Origin: Patescibacteria group bacterium
Lineage (GTDB): Bacteria; Patescibacteriota; UBA1384; XYA2-FULL-43-10; 1-14-0-10-43-13
DNA length: 64,000 bases
Direction: 5' to 3'
NCBI GenBank assembly: GCA_041649155.1
Contig: JBAZNP010000001.1
Span: 67,581 to 131,580, forward strand
The first letter of the stretch is position 1. Each line of letters opens with the position of its first letter. Positions 2,470 to 28,444 of the stretch are shown here, piece after piece. The translations under genes and the position numbers were made by a program. The notes under the pieces are model-generated. The model made no database searches. It was not told the origin of the DNA and saw nothing but the letters and a program-made list of their open reading frames with translations.

Positions 2470-3209
2470 TAACTTGCTGCCTTAATTTTTGTTTCAAAGC
2501 TACCATCGAAAATCGGCAATGTGATATCATTGTTTTTTTCTGCCTGAAAAATTAATCCTGAATTCTTTCTTTGGTGTATGCTTGACAATATGGAACGATC
2601 CGAAATTCGATCATACATTAAAGCTTGATTTCCGACGGCTTCTACACGAAACGGCGTTGATAGCCTAATATCGTTAACCAAAATAGTATTAACTATGCAA
2701 TCAATCGCTGTATTTATAACCACCCTTTGACCGTTTATTGAAATACCCTCTGCGCCAGATCTCCAAAGCAAATTAGTGATATCTCTAAGATCGGCAGCGT
2801 GCACTATTGAATCTTCAGTATTTGGACCAGTTTTACTATCATCAAGAGTTATAATAATACCGGCACCATTTAATTTAGTTAAACCGGCCAAAGATTTTTT
2901 ATCATTCAAATCGGAAAGCTCTTTTTTAGTCAAGGTAATGTCTTCTGATTGGCCCTGAGTTTTTTCGATTGAGGTCTGCAAATTTTTAATTTCCTCTTTT
3001 AATTGCGCCTGTTCTTCGTATAAAGATTCTTTTGTATCTTTCAAGCTAGAATAAGGAGCAACAGGATTTGTAACTCTGGTTGGAATTGAACGCCATTGAG
3101 CAGTAATCAAAACACCAATGGCGACACTTAAAAGCGCAACAAAAGAACGGACCGCAATGGTCTTTGCGCTTTTAATTTTAATTAAGTTAAGTTTAGAAAT
3201 ACGAGACAT
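2469..3209 (-). CDS. DUF881 family protein (YlxX-like paralog)
   Basis: Same architecture as the adjacent gene (…GAEGISINGQRVVINTAIDC…FRVEAVGN). The DUF881 pair arrangement is common. Confidence 0.55.
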   Translation of the reverse strand: MSRISKLNLIKIKSAKTIAVRSFVALLSVAIGVLITAQWRSIPTRVTNPVAPYSSLKDTKESLYEEQAQLKEEIKNLQTSIEKTQGQSEDITLTKKELSDLNDKKSLAGLTKLNGAGIIITLDDSKTGPNTEDSIVHAADLRDITNLLWRSGAEGISINGQRVVINTAIDCIVNTILVNDIRLSTPFRVEAVGNQALMYDRISDRSILSSIHQRKNSGLIFQAEKNNDITLPIFDGSFETKIKAAS

Positions 3210-3323
3210 TAATTAAAATCCAAGTTCCAAGTTCTAATAAAAGATGGCTGTGCCACATGAATTGAGTCAAGTTTCTGAAGGAAAGTCACGTAAAAATCTC
3301 ATTTTAAAAACTCGATTTTTACG

Positions 3324-3399
3324 TGGTACCCGCGGCAGGAATCGGACCTGCGACGCCCGCCTTAGGACGGCGGCGCTCTATCCACTGAGCTACGCGGGC
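3324..3399 (-). tRNA. tRNA-Arg (anticodon CCT)
   Basis: Manual cloverleaf: acceptor GCCCGCG/CGCGGGU, anticodon stem CCGCC/GGCGG, loop GUCCUAA, T-loop, and an encoded CCA. Confidence 0.8.
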
Positions 3400-3529
3400 A
3401 TATTTACAAACTAGCACAAACAGTCTCGGACTTATGTTATCAAATATTGAGTAAATTTGCCACAATTAAAAAAAGCCAAAATTACTAAGGCTTTTTTTAA
3501 TATAGATATTTGATCTGAGTGAATACTAC

Positions 3530-3802
3530 TTATTTAACTTTGCTTCTCAAATTTCTAGAAGGCTTGAATCTAGGCATCTTAGCAGCAGGAATATTGATCG
3601 GATCGCCGGTTCGTGGATTAACACCAGACCTTGCTTTTCTCTTTCCAACATCAAACGTGCCAAAACCTGTCAAGGTAACTTTGTCTCCGCTCGCAATCTC
3701 CTTGGCTATAAGATCAAGCATTGTTTGAACTCCAGCTTCAGCTTCTCTTCTCGACAAGCCGGTTTTTCTTGCTACTTCATTGATAAGATCATTTTTGTTC
3801 AT
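3530..3802 (-). CDS. hup: HU family DNA-binding protein
   Basis: 90 aa, MNKNDLINEVA…GFGTF…RNPRTG, a canonical HU/IHF fold signature. Confidence 0.9.
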   Translation of the reverse strand: MNKNDLINEVARKTGLSRREAEAGVQTMLDLIAKEIASGDKVTLTGFGTFDVGKRKARSGVNPRTGDPINIPAAKMPRFKPSRNLRSKVK

Positions 3803-3823
3803 TTCATCTCCTTCTATTAAGCC

Positions 3824-4630
3824 CTAAATTGATTTTAGGATTTTTGATATTCTTTTTATTTTTTCTGCTTTTTTTGTTTTAACATTTATTTCAACAATAA
3901 CTGCATTAAACATACTGTCTCCACTGGCTATTTTATGTGATTGAGGAAGTTGTGTCAAGAATTTTTCTATAATGATTTCCTTCTTAACGCCTAAGACTGA
4001 ATTCTCAGGTCCGCACATTCCCACGTCGGAAATAAATGCAGTTCCGTTTGATAAAACTTTTTCATCTGCAGTCTGTACGTGCGTATGCGTGCCAAACACG
4101 GCTGAAACATATCTATCAAGATAGTAACCCAAGGCCATTTTCTCACTCGTCGCTTCAGCATGAAAGTCAATTATGATTATGGAATTTTGGTGATCTTCAA
4201 CTATATTTTTACCGATTATGAAAGGACTTTCAATGTCATCTCTCATAAAAACCCTGCCCTGGAGATTAATTAAAGTCAAATCAACGTCTTTGACTTTAAA
4301 AGTAGTCACACCTCTTCCAGGAGAAGACTGGGGATAATTAGCCGGCCTCAACACTTTTATTCTTTGGTCATTTAAACATGAAATAAAGTCCGCATTATTC
4401 CAAATATGATTGCCCGAAGTGAAGTAATCGACGCCCGCCTTAATCATTTCGTCATATTTTTCAAAAGTCATTCCCTTACCCGAAGCCAGATTTTCCCCAT
4501 TTGCAATTACAAAATCAATTCCTTCTTCTTTTTTGATCTCAGGAATAAAATGAGCAACAGCTCTTCTTCCGGGCTTGCCTACAATGTCACCTATGAACAA
4601 TATTTTAATAAATTCTGATTTTTTTTGCAT
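3824..4630 (-). CDS. ymdB: YmdB-like metallophosphoesterase (TIGR00282)
   Basis: N-terminal ILFIGDIVGKPGR with GNH and GTHTH metal-binding motifs. It sits immediately downstream of rny, as in Bacillus. Confidence 0.8.
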   Translation of the reverse strand: MQKKSEFIKILFIGDIVGKPGRRAVAHFIPEIKKEEGIDFVIANGENLASGKGMTFEKYDEMIKAGVDYFTSGNHIWNNADFISCLNDQRIKVLRPANYPQSSPGRGVTTFKVKDVDLTLINLQGRVFMRDDIESPFIIGKNIVEDHQNSIIIIDFHAEATSEKMALGYYLDRYVSAVFGTHTHVQTADEKVLSNGTAFISDVGMCGPENSVLGVKKEIIIEKFLTQLPQSHKIASGDSMFNAVIVEINVKTKKAEKIKRISKILKSI

Positions 4631-7313: not shown

Positions 7314-7338
7314 GCATCACGCAAGTGGTGCTTTTTTC
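7314..7338 (+). terminator. Rho-independent terminator after the tRNA-Lys/tRNA-Glu pair
   Basis: gcatca-cgcaag-tggtgc hairpin followed by TTTTTT. Confidence 0.5.
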
Positions 7339-7537
7339 ATGGTGATTTTCAGGAATCGAAGATTCCCCCTTGCTTGCCGTCCGAAGCTTTAGCGAAGGAT
7401 GGAGTATTTTTTTGTTATTGCTGATTTTGACAACAAAACACAAAAAATGTCCTGTAAAATTTACATTCTGGACATTAAGTTTAAAGCTCATTCATGCAAT
7501 GATTTATTCGCATATTAATTAAACCAAGGAAAAGAAA

Positions 7538-7804
7538 ATGGGATGGATTATAACAATAATTGTCGGCGGCATCATCGGCTGGATAGCTAGCCTGATTGCA
7601 GGTACAGATTACGAACAGGGATTATTTTTAAATATCCTGATCGGTATTATCGGCTCCCTTCTCGGTAAATGGATATTCTCCGATATCCTAAAGATCGGCG
7701 GGGCCTCTGCGGCAGGCACATTTAGCATCTGGGGAATAATCTGGGGAATAATCGGGGCTGTCATCTTAATCGCCATCTTAAAATTATTCCACGTGCTCAA
7801 GTAA
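7538..7804 (+). CDS. GlsB/YeaQ/YmgE family stress-response membrane protein
   Basis: [20 protein letters not shown]… is the characteristic N-terminus of this family. 88 aa with 3 TM segments. Confidence 0.85.
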
Positions 7805-7809
7805 AGGAT

Positions 7810-7989
7810 GTGATTAAGTTGATAAAAATTAACAGGCGCGGATTTGCCTCAATGAGCGAAGAAAAACGAAAAGAAATTGCAAAAAAAGGCGGAATTGCCT
7901 CTCATCAGAAAGGCACCGCTCATGAATTTACCTCGGCAGAAGCAAAACGCGCAGGCAAAAAAGGCGGAAAGTCAAAAAAGAATATTTAA
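7810..7989 (+). CDS. KGG-repeat stress-induced protein (YciG/Con-10-like). It is absent from the ORF track, which has a 60-aa cut-off.
   Basis: GTG start 5 nt after an AAAGGA RBS. It encodes …SEEKRKEIAKKGGIASHQKG…AKRAGKKGGKSKK, a tandem KGG motif. Confidence 0.55.
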   Translation: MIKLIKINRRGFASMSEEKRKEIAKKGGIASHQKGTAHEFTSAEAKRAGKKGGKSKKNI

Positions 7990-7994
7990 ATAAC

Positions 7995-8399
7995 TTATCG
8001 ATTATTTGTGACATATTTAAACCAGTTTTTGTTGAGCCATTTTTTTTCTTTTTTTAGTAAATCCAAGAGACCCCTTTGAATAAGTTCCTTGTCTACTGTT
8101 CCTCCTTTGTGAGGGAATCTCGAGAGCTGAGGAAGAGGAGAAGAAAATCCATGAGCGTAATGGCATAGTTCATGAACTATTGTTGCATCAAGAATATAGC
8201 GGGGTATTTTTTTGTCTTTAAAATAGCCATTTAGGGTAATGACTGTATCTGTTTCATCAATTTTCTGTCTGATACTCCCCAGTCTTTTTACTGCTTTTCT
8301 ACCAAACTTAATATGAACTTTGTTTGATTTCAAAACATCAGTAAAATATTTCCTCCACAAAAAATCCAAGCGATCACTTAAAAAAGTGTCATCTCTCAT
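7995..8399 (-). CDS. SprT-like / DUF45-type zinc metallopeptidase-like protein
   Basis: A HELCHYAHG (HExxH) motif followed by a short C-terminal region; 134 aa. Confidence 0.5.
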   Translation of the reverse strand: MRDDTFLSDRLDFLWRKYFTDVLKSNKVHIKFGRKAVKRLGSIRQKIDETDTVITLNGYFKDKKIPRYILDATIVHELCHYAHGFSSPLPQLSRFPHKGGTVDKELIQRGLLDLLKKEKKWLNKNWFKYVTNNR

Positions 8400-8670
8400 C
8401 TATTTAGAACTCCTTTTTGTAATTAGGCATAAAAAATCGGTCTCAATATTTAATCCGATCATGATTACTTATAACATGCCGCGCGCGCTCAACCAAGCTC
8501 ATCATCTAGAGATAAAGATATTGTCAATTTTGTAATAGATATATTTAAAAAAAATAATTGTTGAGATTAAAGTGCTCAAAACTTATCTTGGCACATTTTC
8601 CAATGAACAAATCAGGCTGATCGGTTATTGTAAGTAATTGTTTTAACAATATTAAATAAAGGAATTAAAA

Positions 8671-9057
8671 ATGGGTTGGATTGTAACCATAATCGTCGGG
8701 GGAATAATTGGCTGGATTGCTAGTTTAATAATGAGAACAAAACAGGGAGTGATCGCCGATATTATAATCGGGATATTAGGATCCATCCTTGGTGTCTGGC
8801 TGTTCGCCGAGGTATTTGGGTTTGGACCAGTAATAGCCACGCCTGGAACGTTATCTCTTTTAAACGTAATCTGGGGTATAATTGGCGCTATAATTGTAAT
8901 TGCCTTAATCGAAGCTGTTTCATATGAAACAAGAGGTATGAAAAGGTATGAAAATGACAAAGATCAATATTCCAAAGGCGTCGCCCACGAATACGAAGAA
9001 GACAAAGGTGAAGAAGTTATAATAGTTAAGAAAAAACGTCCTACAAAGAGAAAATAA
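8671..9057 (+). CDS. GlsB/YeaQ/YmgE family membrane protein (paralog with a charged C-terminal extension)
   Basis: [20 protein letters not shown]… is nearly identical at the N-terminus to 7538..7804. It has an extra ~40-aa acidic/basic tail. Confidence 0.8.
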   Translation: MGWIVTIIVGGIIGWIASLIMRTKQGVIADIIIGILGSILGVWLFAEVFGFGPVIATPGTLSLLNVIWGIIGAIIVIALIEAVSYETRGMKRYENDKDQYSKGVAHEYEEDKGEEVIIVKKKRPTKRK

Positions 9058-9131
9058 TATCCTGTAATCCCGCCTGTCATACTGAGCCCCGAAATAGACC
9101 CTTTTGGGTTGAATAATTTGATTTTTGGCAT

Positions 9132-9162
9132 AAAAAAATCCCGCTTTTAGCGGGGTGTTTTT
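9132..9162 (+). terminator. Rho-independent terminator (cccgc-tttta-gcggg followed by a T-tract)
   Basis: Hairpin plus TTTTTT downstream of the second GlsB paralog. Confidence 0.5.
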
Positions 9163-9311
9163 TAAATACCCCCTTTTCAGCGTTACTCATATTGTGCTGT
9201 GTATTATAATGGATTTGTGGTTATTTTGATCATGACTTAATTTAAATGAAAGTGTTTAGCTGATTTACTTTTAGGCTAATTTATGTTAAAGTTTACTAGT
9301 GAAAATAATAT

Positions 9312-9387
9312 GGCGGCCATGGTGAAGTGGTTATCACGCTAGTTTGTGGCACTGGAGTCATGGGTTCAATTCCCGTTGGCCGCCCCA
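9312..9387 (+). tRNA. tRNA-His (anticodon GTG) with an encoded G-1
   Basis: An extra 5' G pairs with discriminator C73. Anticodon loop UUGUGGC, T-loop TTCAATT. Confidence 0.8.
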
Positions 9388-9436: not shown

Positions 9437-10123
9437 ATGGGGGTTCAAATGAAGTTAAGGTTAGAAGAAAAGAGAGAGGCCATTAAATTACGTCGAGATG
9501 GCTACTCTTACAATGAAATTCGTCAGATTATTCCTGATTTATCTAAGGGAACCCTGTCTGGGTGGCTAAAGAATATCGAATTAAATTCTGTTCAAAAAGC
9601 AAGAATTATATCAAAAATAAATTCAGGAGCCGCAAAAGGTCGCATCAAAGGCGCTTGGACAAATAAAAACAAGGCCATTGATAGAATAAAAAGAATTAAA
9701 TTGGCTGCAGCAAAAGAATTTGATGGACACGCCCTAAACCCAATCTTTAGTATCTTTTTAAGTCTTTATTGGGCTGAAGGAGCAAAAAAATCACGCTGTT
9801 TTCAGTTTGTTAATTCTGACCCTGAGATGGTAAAAATAGTTTTGAAATGTTTAAGAACACTGTTTAATATACCTGAAGAAGAAATTAAAATAAGAATTTT
9901 CATTCATGAAGTATATTCAAATGAGAATTGTGAAGAATTTTGGTCAAAAATAACCAATATTCCAATCAGCTCCTTTAAGAAAACTGTTTACAAGCCGACA
10001 ATACATAACATTAAAAAAAATATTGATTACAAGGGATGCTGTCGGTTGGAATTAAAGGGAAGTGAATTTTACTGGAAAGTTCAAAAGTGGATTGATATGA
10101 TGATTTTGAAATGTAATAATTAG
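9437..10123 (+). CDS. hypothetical protein with an N-terminal HTH and a possible LAGLIDADG-like motif (FLSLYWAEG), embedded in a tRNA cluster
   Basis: 228-aa ORF. The N-terminus …RRDGYSYNEIRQII…GTLSGWLK resembles an HTH. The stop codon overlaps the first base of the downstream tRNA-Arg. Confidence 0.45.
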   Translation: MGVQMKLRLEEKREAIKLRRDGYSYNEIRQIIPDLSKGTLSGWLKNIELNSVQKARIISKINSGAAKGRIKGAWTNKNKAIDRIKRIKLAAAKEFDGHALNPIFSIFLSLYWAEGAKKSRCFQFVNSDPEMVKIVLKCLRTLFNIPEEEIKIRIFIHEVYSNENCEEFWSKITNIPISSFKKTVYKPTIHNIKKNIDYKGCCRLELKGSEFYWKVQKWIDMMILKCNN

Positions 10124-10201
10124 CCCCCGTAGCTCAATTGGATAGAGCGCTTGTCTTCGGAACAAGAGGTTTTACAGGTTCAAATCCTGTCGGGGGTACC
10201 A
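10123..10201 (+). tRNA. tRNA-Arg (anticodon TCG). It has an unusually long (79-nt) class I fold with a 7-nt variable region.
   Basis: Acceptor GCCCCCG/CGGGGGU, anticodon stem CUUGU/ACAAG, loop CUUCGGA, T-loop TTCAAAT, CCA encoded. Confidence 0.7.
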
Positions 10202-10214
10202 AATAATATTATAT

Positions 10215-10290
<76 letters not shown>

Positions 10291-10748: not shown

Positions 10749-11171
10749 TTAGTCCGTTTTTTTCTCTTCTCTAGCGGAATGTTTGCCTTCTACCAGTTCA
10801 GTTACCCTTTTAACAAGCTGATCAGGCATAATCTCGATTTTTAGAATGTAATCATCGGCTTTATTAGAGAGCTTTTCTTCTTCTCCTTTGAAAAAGTTTA
10901 GGGCAGTAAGAACCACAACCTTAATGTCTTTAGTTTTTGGATCGCTTTTTATAATTTTGAGAAATTCATCACCTTGCATCTTTGGCAACATAATATCCAA
11001 GAGCATTGCATCGGGTTTGTATTTATCGTCTTTTAATATCTCAATTGCTTTTTCAGCTGAGAAAGCAACTTCAACCTGCCACCTATCTAATTCAAAGCGC
11101 ATTTTGTATAGTTCGCAGCACCCTCTGCTGTCATCCACTATGAGTAATTTGTAGGACATTTTATCCTCCAT
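10749..11171 (-). CDS. Stand-alone response-regulator receiver (CheY-like REC) protein
   Basis: LLIVDD…D…LDIMLP…K motif set; 140 aa with no output domain. It lies downstream of the sensor kinase. Confidence 0.8.
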   Translation of the reverse strand: MEDKMSYKLLIVDDSRGCCELYKMRFELDRWQVEVAFSAEKAIEILKDDKYKPDAMLLDIMLPKMQGDEFLKIIKSDPKTKDIKVVVLTALNFFKGEEEKLSNKADDYILKIEIMPDQLVKRVTELVEGKHSAREEKKTD

Positions 11172-11205
11172 GCGGAGTTTGTATTAAGTTTTTCTTAAAA
11201 TTAAT

Positions 11206-12864
11206 TTAAAGAACTCTTAAGTTAGTTCCATCAGAATGAATCTTCACTGTCTGCTTAATCTCTTTATACTCTAGTGGCAAAGAAAAGTAAAAAGTGGATC
11301 CCTTTCCTTTTTCTGACTCGAGCCAGATTTTGCCGCCATGAAGCTCAATAATGTTTTCAGATATATATAGACCCAAACCAGAGCCTTGCTGTTCCTGGGG
11401 GTTTTCCGGATCAAAACGACCTACTTGATAGAATTTTTCAAAAAGATGTTTTTGATCATCTTTATCAATACCGACACCGGTATCAGCCACAGAAATGATT
11501 ACGTTATCGTCTTTGACCTTTGACGTAACTGCAATTTTACCGTTTTCTGTGAATTTATTGGCATTACTGATTAAATTTGATATTACTTCACCAATTTTGC
11601 TTTGATCAAAGGTTAATTTGGGAAGATCTTTGCTTAATTTAATGTACGCAATCGAATTACTTTTTTCTTTAGTCTTAACTTCAAATCCTGAGACTATAGA
11701 AGCTATTAAAGCATCAAGATCAGACTCAGCTGCATTTACTTTTAATCTATGCTGATCAATTCTTGATACATTTAAAATATCTTTAGACAATCCTGCCAAG
11801 CGCATGGTATCAGTTAGAATTGGTTTAAAGAAATTTTTTTGCTCTTCATCCAGATGACACAGATTCTCTTCGACCGCCATGTTCAATTTACCTTGAATTA
11901 CCGTGATTGGAGTATTGAGCTCGTGGGTAGCCATTTGCAAAAACTCATCTTTCATGCGATCAAGATCGACAAGATCTTTCTTGTCTTTTTCGAGCTGGTG
12001 CGTTAAATTTTGCAATTGTTTGTTCTGAATAATTTCTTTTTTGACCGAAGTGATAATTAGATAACCGCCGTAAATAACAACCACTAATATAGAACCGTTT
12101 ACCAATCCTTTATTAATATCTTCGGACATCAGCGTTTGAACCAAAAGCGCCAGAGCAACTATCGTAACAGCAAGTTCAGTTAAAATAACTTTAATTTGTA
12201 AAAACCCGCGCTCAATAATTGCATAAGAGGCAAAAGCTAAAAAAATGACAACACTGTAAATTCCCCACCGATAAATATTTTCGTAGCTAGTAATCATTGG
12301 CATAACAAGGCTGAAAAATAAAGCCAAAACAGCGAACGCTGATGCTCCCAGCAAAACATAATAAATCTGGTCTCTTGTTATGCCTTTGTTTGTCTTAAAC
12401 TTAACTATAAGAGCCACGATGCTTATTGCAACATAGATTAATAAAAAGATTGAGTAAGGAATATAGAAAGGTCCGGAAGACACTTTGAATCCAACACTTA
12501 CACTTGGAATAGCTACCGCTACTTTGCCAGCTACTGAGAGAATAAAGAAAATTACCGGAAGCACTAGTGCTATGTGCCACCATCGATTTATGCTGTCGGT
12601 CTTGTTAGGAAAAGAAATGCAAAACATCATAAAAAAATAAACCAGCAATGATGCTGCAGCAAAGCCTAAATTCACATAGGGCTGGACAGTATTAATGGAA
12701 GAATATTTGGCAACCAAGCTAGAAAATATCCATATTGAAGTGAATAAATTGAATGCAAAAAACAATTTATTGCTGATATTCTTATATCCGCTAATTAGAA
12801 CTAAAAAACCCAGTGATAGACTGATGATCGCAACTAATATAGTAATTATTGAGTCAAAATCCAT
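11206..12864 (-). CDS. Sensor histidine kinase with a multi-TM N-terminal sensor domain
   Basis: About 8 TM helices, then HisKA (MATHELNTP) and HATPase_c (N-box, DTGVGI, GSGLGL) motifs. Confidence 0.85.
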   Translation of the reverse strand: MDFDSIITILVAIISLSLGFLVLISGYKNISNKLFFAFNLFTSIWIFSSLVAKYSSINTVQPYVNLGFAAASLLVYFFMMFCISFPNKTDSINRWWHIALVLPVIFFILSVAGKVAVAIPSVSVGFKVSSGPFYIPYSIFLLIYVAISIVALIVKFKTNKGITRDQIYYVLLGASAFAVLALFFSLVMPMITSYENIYRWGIYSVVIFLAFASYAIIERGFLQIKVILTELAVTIVALALLVQTLMSEDINKGLVNGSILVVVIYGGYLIITSVKKEIIQNKQLQNLTHQLEKDKKDLVDLDRMKDEFLQMATHELNTPITVIQGKLNMAVEENLCHLDEEQKNFFKPILTDTMRLAGLSKDILNVSRIDQHRLKVNAAESDLDALIASIVSGFEVKTKEKSNSIAYIKLSKDLPKLTFDQSKIGEVISNLISNANKFTENGKIAVTSKVKDDNVIISVADTGVGIDKDDQKHLFEKFYQVGRFDPENPQEQQGSGLGLYISENIIELHGGKIWLESEKGKGSTFYFSLPLEYKEIKQTVKIHSDGTNLRVL

Positions 12865-12958
12865 TGAAAAATCTAGGTATTAATCATTAATTCATTATTT
12901 ATTATACAATACCCAAATCAGTGTTTACAATTTTAACAAAAAAATCGGGCCAACCGCG

Positions 12959-13651
12959 TTAAGCAGTCGGCCCTTGATTTGCTAGTGCTAAGCTAGCGCC
13001 CCAAGTGGGGTTGAGTTGTTCGATCAATACACTGAAGCCACAGGATCCAGGATCTCCGCCTCCTTCCACATAATTCCGGAAGATAACCGAAGGTTCAATA
13101 ACTTTGAAGCCGTAGTTTCCCAAAACTCTGAGTTCAGGGTCAAGCGGCCTTCCATTGCGCTGACTATTTACATATTTTTCGGGACTCATCTTGTCCTGAA
13201 AACGATGATAGCCAGGCATTCGGGTTATAAACCTGCATCCGCGCTTCCTCTCTGCTACTGCGTAGCCGAATAGGTAGCTGATCAGGCACTCGGTCATGCC
13301 GGCTCGACAACCTTTAGATGTTACTGCGAGGCCAACTCCATGAAGCCATTCACCGTATGGGTTATGAGTCCTTGTGATGTGGCCAGAATCAGTCGCTTCG
13401 TTCCATGTGGGGCAGAGTATGAGATTGTCATTTGCAAGTTGCACGGAAACATAGCCTTCAATGTTGCCATCGATCTCACCAACAACAATTCCGCATTCAG
13501 GGAATGTTGTGATGCGATCAATAAACATCTGCTCATTTCCTTGCCAAATGCTCTTCCATGCTTGGTCACAAACTCGAATGACATCATCAACATCGGTCAC
13601 CACTGCGGGTCTTACTTTCATGTTCATTTTACACCTCTGTCTCCACCGCAT
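12959..13651 (-). CDS. GNAT-like N-acetyltransferase (weak), GC-elevated and divergent from the peptide/rSAM pair
   Basis: …HGVGLAVTSKGCRAGMTECL… resembles the GNAT motif A (R/Q-x-x-G-x-G/A). GC is clearly higher than in the flanking genes. Confidence 0.4.
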   Translation of the reverse strand: MRWRQRCKMNMKVRPAVVTDVDDVIRVCDQAWKSIWQGNEQMFIDRITTFPECGIVVGEIDGNIEGYVSVQLANDNLILCPTWNEATDSGHITRTHNPYGEWLHGVGLAVTSKGCRAGMTECLISYLFGYAVAERKRGCRFITRMPGYHRFQDKMSPEKYVNSQRNGRPLDPELRVLGNYGFKVIEPSVIFRNYVEGGGDPGSCGFSVLIEQLNPTWGASLALANQGPTA

Positions 13652-13838
13652 TGGTGGGATGTCGTTCTTAGTATCTCAAGTTGCCTAATTATGGAGGCAG
13701 CCCGAGTTACCTGGACATTACTTTGTCCAAGCTTTTCTGCTGCCATAGGCAACTCCTTTCAGTTTTCAATGTACTCTAAGCTCATTATACTATATACAAT
13801 AGCGAAGATGTGTTGTATTCTACCACAATTACTCTTAT

Positions 13839-13882
13839 TTGTCAATCGTAGTGTTGACAAAATCGTCATTTAGTGATATTAG
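13839..13882 (+). promoter_or_regulatory. Sigma70-like promoter (TTGACA, 17 bp, TGaTATTAG) overlapped by a perfect inverted repeat TTGTCAA-N8-TTGACAA. This is a candidate operator.
   Basis: Read directly. The -35 box sits inside the right arm of the palindrome, about 50 nt upstream of the peptide ORF. Confidence 0.4.
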
Positions 13883-13932
13883 TATTATAGAATTGCTGGT
13901 TGCAATTCAAAAACTGCAGTAGGAGATCTTCT

Positions 13933-14028
13933 ATGAAAAGAAAGTTCCGCATCCTTAATCGTGGTAACGCCTCAGTTGTCGTTCTGACGAAGGAATCCCA
14001 AGGCGTCATGTATTACCGGGGCCAGTAG
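13933..14028 (+). CDS. Candidate RiPP precursor peptide (31 aa, MKRKFRILNRGNASVVVLTKESQGVMYYRGQ), not in the ORF track
   Basis: ATG 6 nt after an AGGAGA RBS. It lies directly upstream of, and co-oriented with, the RRE-rSAM gene, with a terminator-like hairpin between them. Confidence 0.5.
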   Translation: MKRKFRILNRGNASVVVLTKESQGVMYYRGQ

Positions 14029-14055
14029 TCCCATGGGCGTAAGCCCAGCCAACCT

Positions 14056-14092
14056 GGCGAGGCTGATTCCGATCACGCCTCGCCATTTTTTT
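14056..14092 (+). terminator. Intrinsic terminator/attenuator hairpin (ggcgaggc…gcctcgcc followed by 7 T) between the peptide ORF and the rSAM gene
   Basis: 8-bp GC stem with a T-tract. This precursor-then-leaky-terminator layout is typical of RiPP operons. Confidence 0.55.
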
Positions 14093-14111
14093 CAGAAAGG
14101 GAGCTATTTAG

Positions 14112-15542
14112 ATGAACGTGAGCCTGTCTGAAAAGCCATCGATCGATTATCGAGGCGATTTAGCAGTGGTGATATTCCCTTCTAAACCTTACTGGTTCTC
14201 TGCAACAAAAGAAATTGCAGATATCCTCGAAGCCTTTGAATTAGAGGAGGAAGGTAAAATCACCAGCAGTATCGCAGACAGTTTACAGGTCTCTGTAGAA
14301 GAAGCAAGAGAAATCTATGCAGAGACTACGGATCTGCTTTATTCGTCCGGTGTATTATCTATAGATGGAAGGTACGCCAAGACAACAGAGTTTGCGCCAA
14401 ACTTCCAAGTCAATGATGTCGAAAACGTGCTTGTCATCGCTACTACTCAGAAATGCAATATGGAGTGTGAGATGTGCTATGCACACGCAAGAAAACCACT
14501 TCCCAATGAGATGGCAACGGGAGAAATCAAGACTATTATCGATCAACTCTCCGAAATGCCTTGGCAAAACGGTATTTCTCGCGTTGCTTTGACTGGTGGA
14601 GAGTTGTTTACCCGTCCAGATGCTATCGATCTGATTGGTTATGTCCACGAGCATGGATTCTTTGCTCAAGTGAATACCAATGCGACTTTACTTGATGACA
14701 GTCAAATCAAAAGGCTTGCCGAGTTTCCGCGACTTAAAATGTCGATTTCGCTAGATGGCTGCAGGCCCGAGACACATGACTTCATCAGAGGCGCAGGGGC
14801 ATTCGATACAACCGTCCGGAACATTCGCCTGCTATGTGAAAATGGCGTGTCGGTAGCGATCAACATGTTTGTTCATCGGGACAACATTGGAGAGATCAAG
14901 GAAACACTTCTTCTGGCTGATTCATTGGGAGTCGAAGGGTTTAATTGCCTGAATATGATGAACGTTGGGCGAGGAAATAGCAAAAAGGCAAAACGACTCC
15001 TAGTCGCAGTTCCAGTAGCAGAATTCTATCGCAAGGTTTTTGACGCCGTCCGCGAAGATCATCGGTTGCAAAAGCTGATGATGAATTCCACTTTTGCCAA
15101 TCAACTCATGGGAATTGCCGGAGGAGTTAAGAGCTTCGGTTGTGGAATAGGCACTAACCGAGCTGTCTACGTGAAAGCCGATGGCTCTATCTATCCCTGT
15201 GCCGATACTGCTTTACCGGCATTTCGCCTAGGAAACCTACGCACTGACAGTATGTCTGAAATTTGGGAGAATTCGCCGATCTTAGAGAAGCTTCGCTCTC
15301 TTAATATCGACACCATGAATCCAAAATGTTCGGCATGCGATGTTCGGTATCTCTGTGCGGGCAACTGTCGCGGAGAGAATTATCAGACAACCAAGAATAT
15401 AAAAAGTCCCCATTTCAAGTGTGACGAGATACATACCTCCATCCTCGAGTTGATGTGGATCCTTACCGAAGAGCCCGATCTCTTCAAGTGTAAAGTTGAC
15501 AACCTTTATGCAACAGTGAACTCACATGCTTCAACAGCATAA
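14112..15542 (+). CDS. Radical SAM/SPASM-domain peptide-modifying enzyme with an N-terminal PqqD-like RRE domain
   Basis: CNMECEMC (CxxxCxxC) at about residue 115. A C-terminal Cys-rich SPASM region (CGIG…YPC…CSACDVRYLCAGNC…KC). The first ~95 aa resemble the PqqD/RRE fold pattern. RBS AAAGGGAG. Confidence 0.8.
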   Translation: MNVSLSEKPSIDYRGDLAVVIFPSKPYWFSATKEIADILEAFELEEEGKITSSIADSLQVSVEEAREIYAETTDLLYSSGVLSIDGRYAKTTEFAPNFQVNDVENVLVIATTQKCNMECEMCYAHARKPLPNEMATGEIKTIIDQLSEMPWQNGISRVALTGGELFTRPDAIDLIGYVHEHGFFAQVNTNATLLDDSQIKRLAEFPRLKMSISLDGCRPETHDFIRGAGAFDTTVRNIRLLCENGVSVAINMFVHRDNIGEIKETLLLADSLGVEGFNCLNMMNVGRGNSKKAKRLLVAVPVAEFYRKVFDAVREDHRLQKLMMNSTFANQLMGIAGGVKSFGCGIGTNRAVYVKADGSIYPCADTALPAFRLGNLRTDSMSEIWENSPILEKLRSLNIDTMNPKCSACDVRYLCAGNCRGENYQTTKNIKSPHFKCDEIHTSILELMWILTEEPDLFKCKVDNLYATVNSHASTA

Positions 15543-15585
15543 AAACAAGAGAGATATATTACAACAATCGCTTAGGTCAAATGGT

Positions 15586-16281
15586 CTAAGCGATTTTCTT
15601 TACTATTAAGATTAACCTAGGACTATATATCGAGTATTCCCTAAAATCATAATCCCCAATAACCTTTTGAATAGAAAACTTTGATTTTTCCATCCATTGT
15701 TCCCAAATCGGCAAAGGCGGATATGGGATATCTAATTTTTTCTTGTCGTCTATAAGTTTGAATTCAGTGGCATCAAACTTATAATTAGAATCAGGGTTCT
15801 TTAGAAGATAGGAAATAATTCTAAAGATATTATCGGTATCAAAAAGAACCATGCCGCCAATTTCGATATTATTACTAATCGAGTTTATTGCCGTAGGAAT
15901 ATCAATATTCGCTAAATCTGAAAAAAACCAATAGGCTTTGTTGTACTTCTTGGACAATTTTAGGCTCATAATATCAGAAATAAAATATTCTGATTTCTCT
16001 CCTTTTAATCCAACGGCGGATTCTTTGGCTTTTTTGATTAGGTGCTCAGAAAAATCTGTACCATCGACATGATAGCCCCTCTGGGCAAGATAGTTAGTGT
16101 GTCTGCCCTGTCCACAAGCGATGTCTAAAATCTTGTCATCTTGCTTTAAGCTTAAAGCTTTAACTAAAAAGTCAGTGTCTTTTTCAAGATTTGCAGAATC
16201 TAAAAAAAGACGATGATCAGTTAAATACTCACCTGAAGATCCATAATATTTTTTTAGATAATTGTTTGTCATAATGCCCAA
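15586..16281 (-). CDS. Class I SAM-dependent methyltransferase
   Basis: Motif I LDIACGQGR, plus acidic motifs II and III. Confidence 0.75.
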   Translation of the reverse strand: MGIMTNNYLKKYYGSSGEYLTDHRLFLDSANLEKDTDFLVKALSLKQDDKILDIACGQGRHTNYLAQRGYHVDGTDFSEHLIKKAKESAVGLKGEKSEYFISDIMSLKLSKKYNKAYWFFSDLANIDIPTAINSISNNIEIGGMVLFDTDNIFRIISYLLKNPDSNYKFDATEFKLIDDKKKLDIPYPPLPIWEQWMEKSKFSIQKVIGDYDFREYSIYSPRLILIVKKIA

Positions 16282-16286
16282 TTATT

Positions 16287-17186
16287 TTATCTTCTAGTAC
16301 TATGTTTGTCAAGAATTCGTAGGAACTCCTGAAGCCATGTTTTAGTCCAAGCAGTATTAGGAGTATCAGTAAGTAATTCAGGTAAAATCTGCGAAATTGT
16401 TTGGAGAAGAAAATTGTACTCAATAGCGATTTCGTCGACTGAATCCTGATTTGGGAGTTGGAACTCTGAATTTCCAGCCGTTAATCTCTCTGTGTTCAAC
16501 AAAGTTGATAAGTCATAATGATTATTGTTCACCTGGCAGTTTTCCCAGTCTAATATGTATAATTTCTGATTTGCTCTTATAGCGTTACCGTGCCAAAAGT
16601 CTCCGTGAGTCAGTACCTGTGGTAAATTGTTTAAATATTCGAGCATAATCGAGAATGCTTCTTCGTTGTTTTTAATTAATGTAGTTAACTCCCTGTATGC
16701 TAAATTTTCTTCAAGACTAGTACAAATCTGATTTAGATAAGCAAGAAATTGTGCTTCATTATCATATTCGCCTGCCATAATTTGACTATATGAATCAGGT
16801 ATCTCAATTTTTTGAATTGCCGGCAAAACATCCAGCATGCCATGGGGATCAACTGTCCCATCTGATTCAAGATATTGGAATATTTCAAATCCCTCTATTT
16901 CTCCAATTAGGTCTGGAATACTATCAGATAAGTCATTTGAGAAATGATGGTAGAACAATAACTCTCTATCCTGACCATTTACTAATAAAGGAGAGCTATT
17001 CCGCGGTTTCTTGCATATATATTGTTGCAAACGTCCTTCCTTATCGTCACCAGCAATTAACAGAATATTTTGTTGGAGACGAGAAATTCTAGCTTGTTGA
17101 ATATTCAATTTTTCAGCTATTACATCGGTTATGTTTGGCTCTTCCTCTTCTTGCATAATTCCGTTATTTTCTATCTCTGCCATCAT
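16287..17186 (-). CDS. Aminoglycoside/choline-kinase-like phosphotransferase (APH family)
   Basis: HGDFWHGN catalytic loop and a DWE metal-binding motif. Confidence 0.7.
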   Translation of the reverse strand: MMAEIENNGIMQEEEEPNITDVIAEKLNIQQARISRLQQNILLIAGDDKEGRLQQYICKKPRNSSPLLVNGQDRELLFYHHFSNDLSDSIPDLIGEIEGFEIFQYLESDGTVDPHGMLDVLPAIQKIEIPDSYSQIMAGEYDNEAQFLAYLNQICTSLEENLAYRELTTLIKNNEEAFSIMLEYLNNLPQVLTHGDFWHGNAIRANQKLYILDWENCQVNNNHYDLSTLLNTERLTAGNSEFQLPNQDSVDEIAIEYNFLLQTISQILPELLTDTPNTAWTKTWLQEFLRILDKHSTRR

Positions 17187-17509: not shown

Positions 17510-17728
17510 TTGACAACATCGCAAAAACTTTCAACAGGTGTTGACGCGCGAAATATTCGTAATATCGTCCTGATGCGCCCTGTTAATTCAATGATTGAAT
17601 TCAAACAAATCGTGGGGCGAGGAACACGATTTTTTGACGGCAAAGAATACTTTACAATTATCGATTGGATGCCTATCATCATTTTTCTGATCCAGCATGG
17701 AGTGGGGTACCAGGTAAAAATTGAATAA
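17510..17728 (+). pseudogene. Fragment of an SF2-helicase C-terminal domain (Type I HsdR / Type III Res-like), with no N-terminal part
   Basis: Motif V (LSTGVDARNIRNIVLMRP) and motif VI (QIVGRGTR) followed by the …YFTIIDW box typical of HsdR. The frame is opened by a TGA at 17456. Only about 72 codons remain. Confidence 0.55.
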
Positions 17729-20650: not shown

Positions 20651-20727
20651 CGGGGAGTGGCTCAGTTGGCTAGAGCACCGCGTTTGGGACGCGGGGGTCG
20701 GAGGTTCGAGTCCTCTCTCCCCGACCA
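20651..20727 (+). tRNA. tRNA-Pro (anticodon TGG)
   Basis: CGGGGAG acceptor, loop UUUGGGA, T-loop TTCGAGT, CCA encoded. Confidence 0.8.
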
Positions 20728-20728
20728 T

Positions 20729-20803
20729 GCGGGTATCGTATAATGGTTATTATGCCTGCTTTCCAAGCAGGACATAGGGGTCCGATTCCCCTTACCCGCT
20801 CCA
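20729..20803 (+). tRNA. tRNA-Gly (anticodon TCC)
   Basis: GCGGGUA acceptor, loop UUUCCAA, T-loop TCCGATT, CCA encoded. It lies 1 nt after tRNA-Pro. Confidence 0.8.
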
Positions 20804-25382: not shown

Positions 25383-25458
25383 TGGAGCCGATGAGAGGAT
25401 TTGAACCTCCGACCTCTTCTTTACGAAAGAATTGCTCTACCAGCTGAGCTACATCGGC
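25383..25458 (-). tRNA. tRNA-Thr (anticodon CGT)
   Basis: Reverse complement folds as GCCGAUG…loop UUCGUAA…T-loop TTCAAAT…CCA, with a 27:43 mismatch in the anticodon stem. Confidence 0.7.
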
Positions 25459-25459
25459 A

Positions 25460-25533
25460 TGGAGCGGGTAACGGGAATCGAACCCGTGACTCATCCTTGG
25501 GAAGGACGCATTTTACCACTAAACCATACCCGC
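25460..25533 (-). tRNA. tRNA-Gly (anticodon CCC)
   Basis: Reverse complement gives GCGGGUA…loop UUCCCAA…T-loop TTCGATT…CCA, 1 nt from tRNA-Thr. Confidence 0.75.
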
Positions 25534-26159: not shown

Positions 26160-26786
26160 ATGCTTCGTCTGATTAAAGTTATTGGATTAAGTTTGGGCTT
26201 CATGGTCGTTGTCTGCGGCCTTTTCGCCGTAGCGGCTCGCGCCGACACCAACGACCCAGTCGGCTGGAAAGTAGTTTTCAGCCTCAGTTGTTCCTCTGGA
26301 ACAGTTGAATTCGGGGCCAATGACGCCGGCTCTGGCTATGCAAGAGGATTTGTAGACGGTCCAGTAAGGATGGACCGTGAAGCTGGATATACCAGCATCA
26401 TCCATCTTGGGGCAAACACAATATTTCAAGAAAATCTGATAATCGAGCCCCAGGCAAACGCTCCGGACAGTTTTATCCTAAGTTGGACAACCTTCAACTG
26501 GGACAAGGATTGGTTGTATCGGCCCGGAAATATCGGTCGGTCGATTTACGGCCGACTGCCGATACCTGGAGAAGCTGAGCGATGGCTTGATCTGTCCAAA
26601 TCCGGAAGCACAACTCTTGGCAGCAGCAACCAGTGGTATCACTACGCAAATGGCGATCCGCTGCTTCAGATGCCAATTTTCGCCAATCAGGCTGTTCCCG
26701 AGCCTAGCAGCATTTTTGCCTTAGGCGGCGGATTTGGAGCTATGCTCCTTCGCCGCTATCGTTTCAGAGCTTGGTCTAGAAAATAG
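26160..26786 (+). CDS. PEP-CTERM sorting-domain protein (putative exosortase substrate)
   Basis: N-terminal signal peptide. The C-terminus reads …VPEPSSIFALGGGFGAMLLRRYRFR, i.e. PEP motif, TM segment and Arg cluster. GC is well above the window average. Confidence 0.75.
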   Translation: MLRLIKVIGLSLGFMVVVCGLFAVAARADTNDPVGWKVVFSLSCSSGTVEFGANDAGSGYARGFVDGPVRMDREAGYTSIIHLGANTIFQENLIIEPQANAPDSFILSWTTFNWDKDWLYRPGNIGRSIYGRLPIPGEAERWLDLSKSGSTTLGSSNQWYHYANGDPLLQMPIFANQAVPEPSSIFALGGGFGAMLLRRYRFRAWSRK

Positions 26787-26805
26787 GACTAAGCCAAGAT
26801 CAAAC

Positions 26806-26836
26806 GCCTACCCCGAAGGGGTGGGCGTTTTTCTTA
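26806..26836 (+). terminator. Intrinsic terminator (cgcctacccc-gaag-gggtgggcg followed by ttttt)
   Basis: GC-rich stem plus T-tract. Confidence 0.6.
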
Positions 26837-26876
26837 TTGATTTTTTGATCAATAATTGTTATAATTCATTCATTGC

Positions 26877-26953
26877 GGGGTCGTAGTTCAGTTGGTTAGA
26901 ACGCCACACTGTCACTGTGGAGGTCGCCGGTTCGAGTCCGGTCGATCCCGCCA
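26877..26953 (+). tRNA. tRNA-Asp (anticodon GTC)
   Basis: GGGGUCG acceptor, loop CUGUCAC, T-loop TTCGAGT, CCA encoded. Confidence 0.8.
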
Positions 26954-27057
26954 GTAAAAAACCGTTAGTGCATTGCAAATGTACTGGCGGTTTTTTATTG
27001 CTATTTTTGCAAATTATTGTTATACATGTAGCGAGATTAGCAAAGGGGGCATGTGAC

Positions 27058-27384
27058 ATGCTTACTGGAATTTTATACCGGCTATCGGGATTGATTTATG
27101 GCAAATACGTTTGCGTCCGTTGCGGTAAACAGTTTCCAAACAGGTTGATCAAAAAAGTGCTAAACCAATGGATTGCTGCAAAATGGCACGAAGATATGTC
27201 GACAACAGCCGGATCTGTTCATCGAGTCTGCCTCCAATGTTGCGAATTGGCCAAAAGTTGGGATGGCACAGAATCTGGATATGATCCAAAAAATGATCCG
27301 GCAGCCGGACTTGGTTTGGGTCCAATCGCATCCGATCTACTTAGAATGATCGAGGATGCTCAGGAAACTTTGAAAGGAAAGTAG
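27058..27384 (+). CDS. hypothetical zinc-ribbon protein (CxxC…CxxCC)
   Basis: In-frame ATG 9 nt after an AAGGGGG RBS. The track's 5' extension runs through tRNA-Asp and is rejected. CVRCGK…CLQCC. Confidence 0.5.
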   Translation: MLTGILYRLSGLIYGKYVCVRCGKQFPNRLIKKVLNQWIAAKWHEDMSTTAGSVHRVCLQCCELAKSWDGTESGYDPKNDPAAGLGLGPIASDLLRMIEDAQETLKGK

Positions 27385-27406
27385 TGATGACATTGAAGCG
27401 GCGAAT

Positions 27407-27440
27407 CATCAGCCAAAGACCGAACATCTGAGTTCGGTCT
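27407..27440 (+). terminator. Intrinsic terminator (aaagaccgaac-atctga-gttcggtct followed by tttttttt)
   Basis: Perfect stem plus T-tract. Confidence 0.65.
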
Positions 27441-27586
27441 TTTTTTTATTAAACATGAACTTTTGGTCGATTGGACAAAAAAGCTTAAAAAATAGTTATT
27501 TTTTTATAGAAATAGCTAATAAAATATCATCTTTATTAAGAGATGATATTTTTGCCTGCGGGCGAATATGATACTGGAGGGAAAAA

Positions 27587-28444
27587 ATGAAAAAGAGCTT
27601 GATTTTGTGTTTGATCACAGTTGTAAGCGTGGGCATATTGGCACCCACTCCAATCAGAGCAAGTGAAGAAGGACGACGCAATGTTGCTTATCTGACAGGC
27701 GTATTGCTTGGCGGAGCGATTTACACCGGTAATCCATATGCAATCGGAGCAACAGGATCCGGAACGCTTTATTCCTTGAAACGATTGGGCGATGAAATCA
27801 ATAATCGCCACCAGCGGGAGAAATATTATCAGCCACAAGCCCGTCAACCTCAGAACTGTCCATCTCCATGCCAACAGCCAGCATATTGTCCTGCACAATA
27901 TCAACAAGTAGCATGCTGTCCGACTTGCGGTCAAAGTCAGACATACTCAAATTGCGGACCAAGAGGACAAAATTGTTCTGTCAACCAGCCTCCGCAGTAT
28001 GTCTATTACCCGACCACAGCTCAATGCAATAACTACGACAGTCGTGACCCTGACGAGTTAATTCCCAATACGGCTTCAGAGTCTTCGCATCAGAATTTCT
28101 CGGTTGGATACAATGGCAACAATCCAACATTTCGCTTCAATCGCTCAGGAGGGCAACGCACAAGCTATGTCCGCAGAGGAAACAAACAAAAACAATCGCA
28201 AAAAGCGCAAAAAGTGATAGTGGTCTATGTAGATGCTAATGGTTATCCGATACAGCAAAATGCCGGTTATCAGCCGCAACCAACATATCAACGTGACCCC
28301 GATCAGTTGGTTCCTGTCAGCGCTTCAGATTCATCTCATCAGAATTTCTCGGTTGGATACAACGGTAACAATCCAACATCTTACCTCAATCGTTCAGGCG
28401 GTCAACGCATAAGTTATGCTCGCAGAGGCAACTTAAGAAATTAA
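27587..28444 (+). CDS. Secreted protein with a Cys/Gln/Pro-rich linker and two ~75-aa tandem repeats
   Basis: Signal peptide. Internal repeats …RDPDELIPNTASESSHQNFSVGYNGNNPT…RSGGQR.SY.RRGN occur twice. Confidence 0.6.
   Translation: MKKSLILCLITVVSVGILAPTPIRASEEGRRNVAYLTGVLLGGAIYTGNPYAIGATGSGTLYSLKRLGDEINNRHQREKYYQPQARQPQNCPSPCQQPAYCPAQYQQVACCPTCGQSQTYSNCGPRGQNCSVNQPPQYVYYPTTAQCNNYDSRDPDELIPNTASESSHQNFSVGYNGNNPTFRFNRSGGQRTSYVRRGNKQKQSQKAQKVIVVYVDANGYPIQQNAGYQPQPTYQRDPDQLVPVSASDSSHQNFSVGYNGNNPTSYLNRSGGQRISYARRGNLRN

Follow-up and report, generated by a model that had tools for sequence, protein, structure and literature searches.

What system is encoded where a short, unannotated open reading frame (ORF), a radical S-adenosylmethionine (SAM) enzyme and several possible tailoring genes lie together in the genome of a Patescibacteria group bacterium? 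Patescibacteria have tiny genomes and very little biosynthetic capacity. The locus begins at position 12959 of a 64,000-nucleotide stretch of contig JBAZNP010000001.1 (assembly GCA_041649155.1), which we call the window and in whose numbering its features are given. An initial annotation, made from the sequence alone, had proposed a RiPP system (one making a peptide that is synthesized ribosomally and modified post-translationally), comprising a precursor, an attenuating hairpin and a maturase that carries a fused RiPP recognition element (RRE). We find that the precursor, the RRE-radical SAM-SPASM maturase and an adjacent methyltransferase very probably constitute one RiPP cassette, while the proposed GNAT gene, the acquired islet, the strength of the promoter and the Tyr-Arg crosslink fared less well.

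The precursor gene lies at 13933–14028 on the plus strand and encodes the 31-residue peptide MKRKFRILNRGNASVVVLTKESQGVMYYRGQ, with a ribosome-binding site, AGGAGA (13921–13926, read from the sequence), 6 nt 5' of its ATG; both the ORF and this site are as first described. The N-terminal half of the peptide (about F5–L18) is its presumed recognition, or leader, part and T19–Q31 its presumed core. The peptide pattern occurs once in the window, against a chance expectation of 0. Peptide and enzyme were linked by searches in both directions. Among loci retrieved through close homologs of the enzyme (the window, five genome loci and four further contigs, together the window, L001–L005 and L011–L014), 10/10 have the peptide ORF upstream of the radical SAM gene. 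When the back-translated invariant core was run over metagenome contigs instead, 33 loci were recovered, and in all 33 the same radical SAM gene follows the peptide within about 60–200 bp, for a total linkage of 43/43 loci. In none of the loci examined is the ORF missing or frame-shifted. Across 30 distinct nucleotide versions, pairwise differences at codon positions 1/2/3 number 3082/1730/6878, and within the LTKESQGxMYYR segment 821/505/3056. Because third-position differences dominate and the ORF stands upstream of the radical SAM gene in all these loci, we read it as a coding gene, and its substitution pattern indicates a genuine gene under purifying selection. A start could be inferred in 26 loci, and 24 of these have a Shine-Dalgarno match of 4–6 nt ahead of it.

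The peptide has no match in Pfam or NCBIfam, and its gene was called in 0/9 family loci with returned gene calls; catalogues built on such calls would therefore overlook the precursor. An RNA element as the explanation of the small ORF was dropped because Rfam returned nothing at the small-ORF region (E-values up to 1) and tRNAs only across the whole window. Viral contigs scanned with the peptide pattern gave 0 matches, which leaves carriage of the cassette by phage without support.

The gene downstream (14112–15542, plus strand) encodes a 476-residue RRE-radical SAM-SPASM peptide maturase. Its radical SAM core spans residues 107–268 (14430–14915), with Pfam Radical_SAM (PF04055) matching residues 111–268 at 82 bits (cut-off 29.5), and its SPASM region spans residues 344–437 (15141–15422), with Pfam SPASM (PF13186) matching residues 344–410 at 44 bits (cut-off 21.5). 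The radical SAM CX3CX2C motif is C115-x3-C119-x2-C122. The 7-Cys SPASM motif, defined as C-x9-15-G-x4-C ... C-x2-C-x5-C-x3-C ... C, is found as C344-x13-G358-x4-C363, C406-x2-C409-x5-C415-x3-C419 and C437. Among 52 homologs none of these cysteines varies apart from C115, whose conservation is at least 90%, so that the annotated CxxxCxxC site and Cys-rich SPASM tail are borne out by both Pfam and conservation. Scored against NCBIfam, the enzyme matches StsB (165 bits), TIGR04053 (159), AhbD (148), WgkB (146), MftC (146), PqqE (96) and the anaerobic sulfatase-maturating enzyme (anSME) model (94), and reaches none of the equivalog cut-offs; because every score falls far below its cut-off, the family is without a curated equivalog. 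Some public annotations nevertheless label members MftC.

Structure prediction places the enzyme among peptide maturases. The full-length AlphaFold2 model has a mean predicted local distance difference test score (pLDDT) of 91.5, and a Foldseek search with it found the sactisynthase CteB as the best match (479 columns, query-normalized template modeling (TM) score 0.66), followed by SkfB, SuiB, anSME, TigE and PqqE, with the epimerase EpeE also among the matches. The RRE-containing CteB and then SkfB and SuiB thus rank ahead of anSME, whereas a grouping with anSME or other families that do not act on peptides had been the outcome foreseen should the annotation be wrong. The RRE is predicted at roughly residues 1–85 (14112–14366). 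Residues 1–98 modeled in isolation (pLDDT 91.9) adopt the topology beta-beta-beta-beta-alpha-alpha-alpha; an RRE is recognized by a PqqD-like winged-helix fold of three strands followed by three helices. Nearly all the leading Foldseek matches of this domain are RRE domains; they begin with TbiB1 with bound leader (TM 0.65/0.71) and continue with McbB, ThcOx, TbtB, lasso B1, CteB, MccB, PqqD and SuiB. These matches are consistent with one another, and the N-terminus appears, at the fold level only, to be an RRE domain, as its PqqD-like pattern had suggested. With a CX3CX2C site, a 7-Cys SPASM motif, an RRE fold and a co-conserved short precursor, the locus has the features by which radical SAM RiPP (RaS-RiPP) systems are recognized.

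The third gene, at 15586–16281 on the minus strand, encodes a class-I SAM-dependent methyltransferase (Pfam Methyltransf_25/11/31) that is presumed to be a tailoring enzyme. It had been considered a tailoring enzyme or an unrelated neighbor outside the GC-rich islet. Wherever a locus is long enough to tell, it adjoins the radical SAM gene, with one exception (L034), and is therefore not a bystander but the constant third gene of the cassette. Its orientation varies: it is convergent in loci whose peptide is of the YYRGQ type, the window included, and co-directional in most YYRAE/YYRSE loci. Behind it in the window, and transcribed with it, is a gene for an APH/choline-kinase-like phosphotransferase (16287–17186, minus strand; Pfam APH). 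This kinase, for which the annotation had offered the same two options, follows the methyltransferase in only three loci: the window, L003 (39% identity) and L035 (62%). It is an occasional accessory gene, optional in the cassette. Synthesis of phosphocholine by the kinase and methyltransferase pair is not favored, given that the relevant Protein Data Bank (PDB) match covers only the SAM-binding region of the methyltransferase and that the kinase is confined to those three loci. Inspection of the flanks revealed no protease or exporter in the cassette. Its parts are thus the peptide, the hairpin, the maturase and the methyltransferase; the kinase is an optional addition, and the GNAT-like gene does not belong to it.

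Named family members belong to Uhrbacteria, Magasanikbacteria, Parcubacteria, Paceibacterota and Peribacteraceae, and the cassette is self-contained and typical of Patescibacteria, or candidate phyla radiation (CPR) bacteria. No Pfam or NCBIfam model describes the peptide/enzyme family, and literature searches on the peptide motif and on CPR RiPPs yielded nothing relevant and, among 8 million papers, none describing either peptide or family. The system is an uncharacterized family, although the RRE-radical SAM-SPASM architecture itself is standard. The methyltransferase and kinase of the window are closest to those of L035 (70% and 62%), whereas its radical SAM enzyme is 69% identical to that of L035 and 84% identical to P0002; these differing closest relatives suggest some exchange of genes. 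At L012 an ISL3-family transposase (3203–4449) lies directly upstream of the peptide-radical SAM-methyltransferase cassette, which fits occasional mobility of the cassette.

The intergenic regions suggest how the cassette may be expressed. The palindrome reported upstream of the peptide as TTGTCAA-N8-TTGACAA is present and extends further, to 13838–13861, where it reads TTTGTCAA-N8-TTGACAAA. It was not found in other family loci and is specific to the window; as a family operator it was accordingly rejected, and in the window it is simply two back-to-back -35 boxes. On the plus strand, a putative precursor promoter (13854–13882) consists of a -35 box TTGACA (13854–13859), a 17-nt spacer and a TGn-extended -10 box TATTAG (13877–13882). 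Its -10 ends in G, which is why our consensus scan did not list it, and the promoter described as near-consensus is only moderate. A TTGACA box recurs 50–140 nt upstream of the peptide coding region in 15/30 loci. The other arm of the palindrome is used by an 11/12 minus-strand promoter found by the scan (13845–13817), which faces a 230-residue ORF discussed below. Between peptide and maturase, a hairpin followed by a T run (14055–14092, plus strand) has a stem of 13 bp, interrupted by one bulge and capped by a tetraloop (14055–14085), and T7 at 14086–14092. Folding corroborates this annotated element, with an energy of -21.2 kcal/mol and z = -5.9, and 0/200 shuffles fold as well. Of 30 non-redundant loci, at least 22 have a GC-rich hairpin of 10–17 bp directly after the peptide stop, with unrelated sequences, many of them then followed by T runs. 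Such a hairpin would act as an intrinsic terminator or attenuator, as a stabilizer of the mRNA 3' end, or as both, and is probably leaky; the layout is that expected if precursor transcripts must greatly outnumber those of the enzyme. A second hairpin, between the convergent maturase and methyltransferase genes (15566–15595; 13-pair stem by scan, z = -3.95), extends into the methyltransferase gene at its 3' end and is a candidate bidirectional terminator.

Taken together, these features point to the following pathway. The dedicated promoter would give a short transcript for the 31-residue precursor, and the hairpin after the stop would end or stabilize most transcripts, with read-through providing the maturase. 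The RRE at the N-terminus of the maturase would bind the N-terminal half of the peptide (F-R-I-L-N-R-G-N...V-V-V-L), its presumed substrate, and the radical SAM site would generate a 5'-deoxyadenosyl radical for hydrogen abstraction in the core T-K-E-S-Q-G-V-M-Y-Y-R-G-Q, while two auxiliary clusters in SPASM would handle the electron. The adjacent methyltransferase would then methylate the product.

Which residues are modified can be approached through their conservation. Relative to the window, identity averages 89% over the 14 C-terminal residues of the peptide, 64% over the preceding 13, 61% over the maturase and 46% over the methyltransferase. A core more conserved than both leader and enzyme inverts what is usual for RiPPs and suggests that the product may have a fixed molecular partner. 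None of the 30 main-family peptide versions has a substitution at Y27, Y28 or R29. In an exhaustive search the family collapsed to one representative at 50% identity (774 bits), followed by a graded tail of full-length relatives, and the gene contexts of four distant relatives were recovered, on which the distant comparison rests. At L049, from Andersenbacteria, the ORF upstream of the enzyme ends ...IVCRGNRRRIVAHREALGAVKYKGQ, and convergent to the enzyme is a full-length homolog of the methyltransferase (25% identity, E 6e-16); this enzyme is itself distant, being 34% identical to the sister-subfamily enzyme P0136. At L051 the ORF ends ...IICVGNRHVVVATREALGAQKYKSQ and the convergent gene encodes a GNAT, and the Berkelbacteria locus L052 likewise has a convergent GNAT (4082–4451), with no precursor-like ORF found there. 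In the sister subfamily (L048 and L050) a precursor of 50–62 residues lies downstream of the maturase and reads ...VVRVTLEAQGTLLYN(S/G)E..., a second radical SAM gene is directly upstream of the maturase (L048 1215–2631, L050 698–2161) and there is no methyltransferase. Because a GNAT replaces the methyltransferase at the same convergent position, the tailoring step may cap a common nucleophile, either an amine or a hydroxyl.

Two further observations concern these distant loci. The called start of the radical SAM gene at L051 (1775–1907) overlaps the true precursor ORF (1779–1907), leaving the enzyme annotated about 45 residues too long. L049 encodes a C39-type peptidase about 3.4 kb upstream (1–586) and a second methyltransferase and second radical SAM gene downstream (7314–9368), which may be processing genes that the main family lacks.

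Aligned across three more distant enzyme subfamilies, the precursors share only N12, E21, G24 and Y28 as invariant residues, with T19 nearly so, while K20, Q23, M26, Y27 and R29 all vary. This pattern points to a reactive site at Tyr28, possibly together with Glu21, more than to a Tyr-Arg link. A crosslink involving Tyr28 is the reading that we favor, if by a modest measure. More tentatively, Glu21 is the likeliest partner: an intramolecular Glu21-Tyr28 crosslink onto the Tyr28 ring may be formed across a fixed E-x6-Y spacing, by analogy with the action of PqqE on PqqA, although this specific pair is less probable than not. The initial annotation had instead looked to the C-terminal Y-Y-R-G-Q, which would give either a ryptide-like C-C crosslink between Tyr28 and Arg29 or a triceptide-like cyclophane from the Tyr27 ring to Arg29 C-beta. 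Precedents exist, in that RrrB joins Arg-C-delta to Tyr-C3 and three-residue motifs are where related radical SAM enzymes form cyclophanes (PMC11851443). In NCBIfam, WgkB scores relatively well, and the invariance of Y27, Y28 and R29 in the main family would suit such a link. Because R29 is replaced by K or N and Y27 by K or L in related subfamilies, whereas Y28 and E21 are kept, both forms of this proposal are weakened, and with no cut-off of a characterized family reached by the enzyme we consider them unlikely.

The sactisynthases CteB (thermocellin), SkfB and StsB have the same N-terminal RRE, radical SAM barrel and 7-Cys SPASM region and a short precursor beside the enzyme; CteB is the best structural match and StsB gives the best NCBIfam score. 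They differ in that the precursor core here is Cys-free, that StsB scores 165 bits against a 625-bit cut-off and that identity to CteB is about 20%. All 30 peptide versions lack Cys in the core, with sporadic Cys at variable leader positions only. Because the core has no cysteine, a sactionine thioether, already deemed improbable in the annotation, is impossible, and both sactipeptide and ranthipeptide assignments were rejected on this ground and on score (StsB as above; PapB 92 against 340 bits). The streptococcal RaS-RiPP enzymes StrB/SuiB, WgkB, RrrB and TqqB and the triceptide synthases are likewise radical SAM/SPASM proteins; guided by an RRE, they form C-C or C-O links in cores that lack Cys. 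The full-length model matches SuiB in structure, WgkB scores as given above, and Tyr-Arg, Lys-aromatic and Ser/Thr-Gln pairs are all present in this core (PMC11851443). Those systems have variable cores or repeated short motifs, whereas a single 13-residue core, 89% conserved, is found here, with a host range of CPR bacteria and no family cut-off reached.

A modification other than a macrocycle would also be compatible with the cassette: epimerization as by EpeE, or hydroxylation, cleavage or other chemistry at Tyr, Met or Thr, with the methyltransferase capping the product. The sequence data leave the reaction type unfixed, and the structural matches include EpeE, itself a radical SAM/SPASM epimerase. 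Nearest by full-length structure and by profile are, however, the crosslinkers CteB, SkfB, SuiB, StsB and WgkB, and the invariance of E21 and Y28 at fixed spacing over all subfamilies suits a pairwise link, so that this alternative seems rather improbable.

We give about the same low credence to a small redox cofactor derived from the peptide, as with pyrroloquinoline quinone (PQQ) or mycofactocin, in which the peptide would be a scaffold that is later degraded. PqqE makes a Glu16-Tyr20 C-C crosslink on the 29-residue PqqA, aided by the RRE protein PqqD (PMC10906245). The present locus likewise has a highly conserved, Cys-free precursor of about 30 residues with an unchanging Glu and Tyr, RRE-type recognition and a radical SAM/SPASM enzyme. 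Also in favor of a cofactor, the cassette has neither exporter nor protease, and its nearly invariant core exceeds the enzyme in conservation. Mycofactocin (MftA/MftB/MftC) is similar in its short conserved precursor and in a radical SAM/SPASM enzyme that acts on a Tyr near the C-terminus. In both comparisons the RRE is fused here (PqqD is a separate protein), and the present system has a methyltransferase partner that PQQ biosynthesis lacks. A conserved oxidoreductase is missing from the flanks, which differ in every locus, as are genes resembling PqqB/C/F or MftD/E/F, and the whole 13-residue core is conserved rather than merely two residues. PQQ biosynthesis itself was rejected on the PqqE score (TIGR02109, 96 against 381 bits), the E-x6-Y spacing and the absence of pqq genes from every flank. 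Mycofactocin was likewise set aside, with MftC (TIGR03962) at 146 against 265 bits, both equivalog cut-offs being missed widely, and with a precursor that ends Y-Y-R-G-Q instead of Gly-Val-Tyr.

Several points weigh against the proposed pathway. The invariance of Glu21 and Tyr28, in a residue comparison of four distant loci only, could reflect binding rather than chemistry. The analogy with PqqA is loosened by a spacing of E-x6-Y here against E-x3-Y there, and PqqE (96 bits) is not a nearer relative of the enzyme than StsB (165), WgkB (146) or MftC (146). For the N-terminal domain the best Foldseek E-value is only 2e-3, and sequence methods gave nothing: Pfam PqqD and NCBIfam had no match in residues 1–110, and a profile of the N-terminal family against PDB sequences returned noise only. 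L034 lacks the methyltransferase. Where present, this enzyme has a generic class-I fold; a PDB sequence search returned generic class-I relatives only, from which no substrate can be deduced, and because the best solved relatives are phosphoethanolamine N-methyltransferases, it may act on a small molecule.

The role of the product may be judged from conservation and gene content. With a core that has changed less than the enzyme, and with neither protease nor exporter in the cassette, a conserved cellular or signaling role is more likely than that of a fast-evolving antibiotic. The fuller proposal, of a Tyr28-centered (Glu-Tyr or other) crosslinked, methylated peptide specific to Patescibacteria that would serve in a symbiotic lifestyle as something cofactor-like or as a signal or effector, and not as an antibiotic, is speculative, and we regard it as unlikely in all its parts. 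Were such a peptide to be produced, it would establish another class of RiPP, whose crosslink topology (E-x6-Y) would be new as well, and would be among the very few biosynthetic products assigned to the reduced-genome Patescibacteria. From Uhrbacteria and Magasanikbacteria through to Parcubacteria and Paceibacteria the three genes stay together, with recognizable relatives in Andersenbacteria and Berkelbacteria. Its unusual traits, namely confinement to CPR bacteria, a nearly invariant core and the lack of protease and exporter, make it a good experimental target, and a 31-residue peptide with two enzymes is small enough for reconstitution in Escherichia coli. The peptide-enzyme system could thereby bring to light a new peptide modification by radical SAM chemistry and give access to the physiology of CPR bacteria.

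The left boundary of the cassette and its base composition remain to be accounted for. The initial annotation described the segment from about 12960 to 15550 as GC-elevated, and so it is, at 0.44–0.50 against 0.31–0.38 in the flanks, with steps at the ends of two ORFs. These are the maturase gene and, divergent from the peptide, an ORF of 230 codons on the minus strand (12959–13651). Their GC contents at third codon positions (GC3) of 0.460 and 0.461, respectively, make them two of only three outliers among 46 long window ORFs (mean 0.328, standard deviation 0.054). The 230-residue protein had been labeled a GNAT. It has no match in Pfam or NCBIfam, and that identity is weakly supported by a match of its family profile to the CurA GNAT-like domain over 170 residues (E 0.0011) and by weak matches of 3/15 homologs to PF00583 (best E 0.0018). 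Just 15 homologs were found in databases. In three independent contexts, represented by the four loci L007–L010, homologs precede a HisKA_7TM histidine kinase with no radical SAM gene nearby, and the window has the same order, with a HisKA_7TM kinase at 11206–12864 (minus strand) downstream of the 230-residue gene. At L006 the gene downstream of the homolog aligns with the window kinase, and nucleotide identity to the window is 80% from 11459 to 13859, where it stops inside the palindrome. Because this collinearity ends at 13859, we assign the 230-residue gene to the kinase module and place the left edge of the peptide cassette at about 13860.

The view of segment 12959–15542 as one acquired island whose GNAT-like gene tailors the peptide is thereby largely refuted, and we hold it to be very improbable. 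In its favor are the GC3 of both genes, their divergence from a shared palindrome and the GNAT in tailoring position in the distant relatives L051 and L052. The 230-residue gene lies beside the peptide in none of the other family loci and is unrelated to the GNAT of L051, and on these grounds, with the kinase context and the L006 boundary, it was rejected as a cassette member. The GC excess also recurs in other genomes. In 19/24 non-redundant loci with measurable flanks, the window included, the radical SAM gene exceeds the remainder of its locus in GC content; the mean excess is about 4.5 points, and that in the window about 9. The methyltransferase is always GC-poorer than the radical SAM gene, by 10–20 points and in GC3 too, even where the two are co-directional (0.494 against 0.186 in L032), and the 230-residue family is GC-richer than its kinase neighbor in other genomes. 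The window islet therefore consists of two neighboring genes that come from different modules, both of them characteristically rich in GC. Because the elevation recurs in both gene families, it does not cleanly indicate a single transfer, and the horizontal acquisition first proposed is not secure.

Finally, the small ORF might be a conserved leader or regulatory peptide beside an enzyme that acts on a protein or small molecule, as the scores of the AhbD, NirJ and anSME models in the peptide-maturase range and the good structural match of anSME to the core would allow, but this is scarcely credible beside the fused RRE-fold domain that anSME lacks, the linkage in all loci, the homologous residues kept where the peptide has moved downstream (L048 and L050) and a C-terminal half that is the most conserved element of the locus. 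Assignment to the sulfatase-maturating enzymes themselves was rejected on the RRE-fold domain and on score (TIGR03942, 94 against 349 bits).

The separate module to the left of the cassette (10749–13651, minus strand) consists of the 230-residue protein, the HisKA_7TM histidine kinase and a response regulator, and the pairing of the first two recurs in L006–L010. The true start of the 230-residue protein is probably the ATG at 13627 (about 222 residues) instead of 13651, because its homologs begin MNMKVRP. On the metagenome contig L010 (385–10588) the module lies among TrwB/TraG-like, TrbC, type IV secretion system pilin, PrgI and TraC-like genes, surroundings of type IV secretion and conjugation that suggest carriage on a mobile element. 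Elsewhere in the window, two GC-rich ORFs without a Pfam match (26160–26786, GC 0.51, and 27587–28444, GC 0.46) flank a tRNA-Asp gene (26877–26953), and this region (26160–28444) may be another foreign insert. The window carries eleven tRNA genes, several of them paired, including Arg-Arg (10123–10290), Pro-Gly (20651–20803) and Thr-Gly (25383–25533). A short ORF at 17510–17728 contains ...IEFKQIVGRGTRFFDGKEYFTIIDW, which in translation resembles the C-terminal helicase motif QxxGRxxR of a restriction-enzyme or superfamily 2 (SF2) helicase subunit, and it may be a gene remnant.

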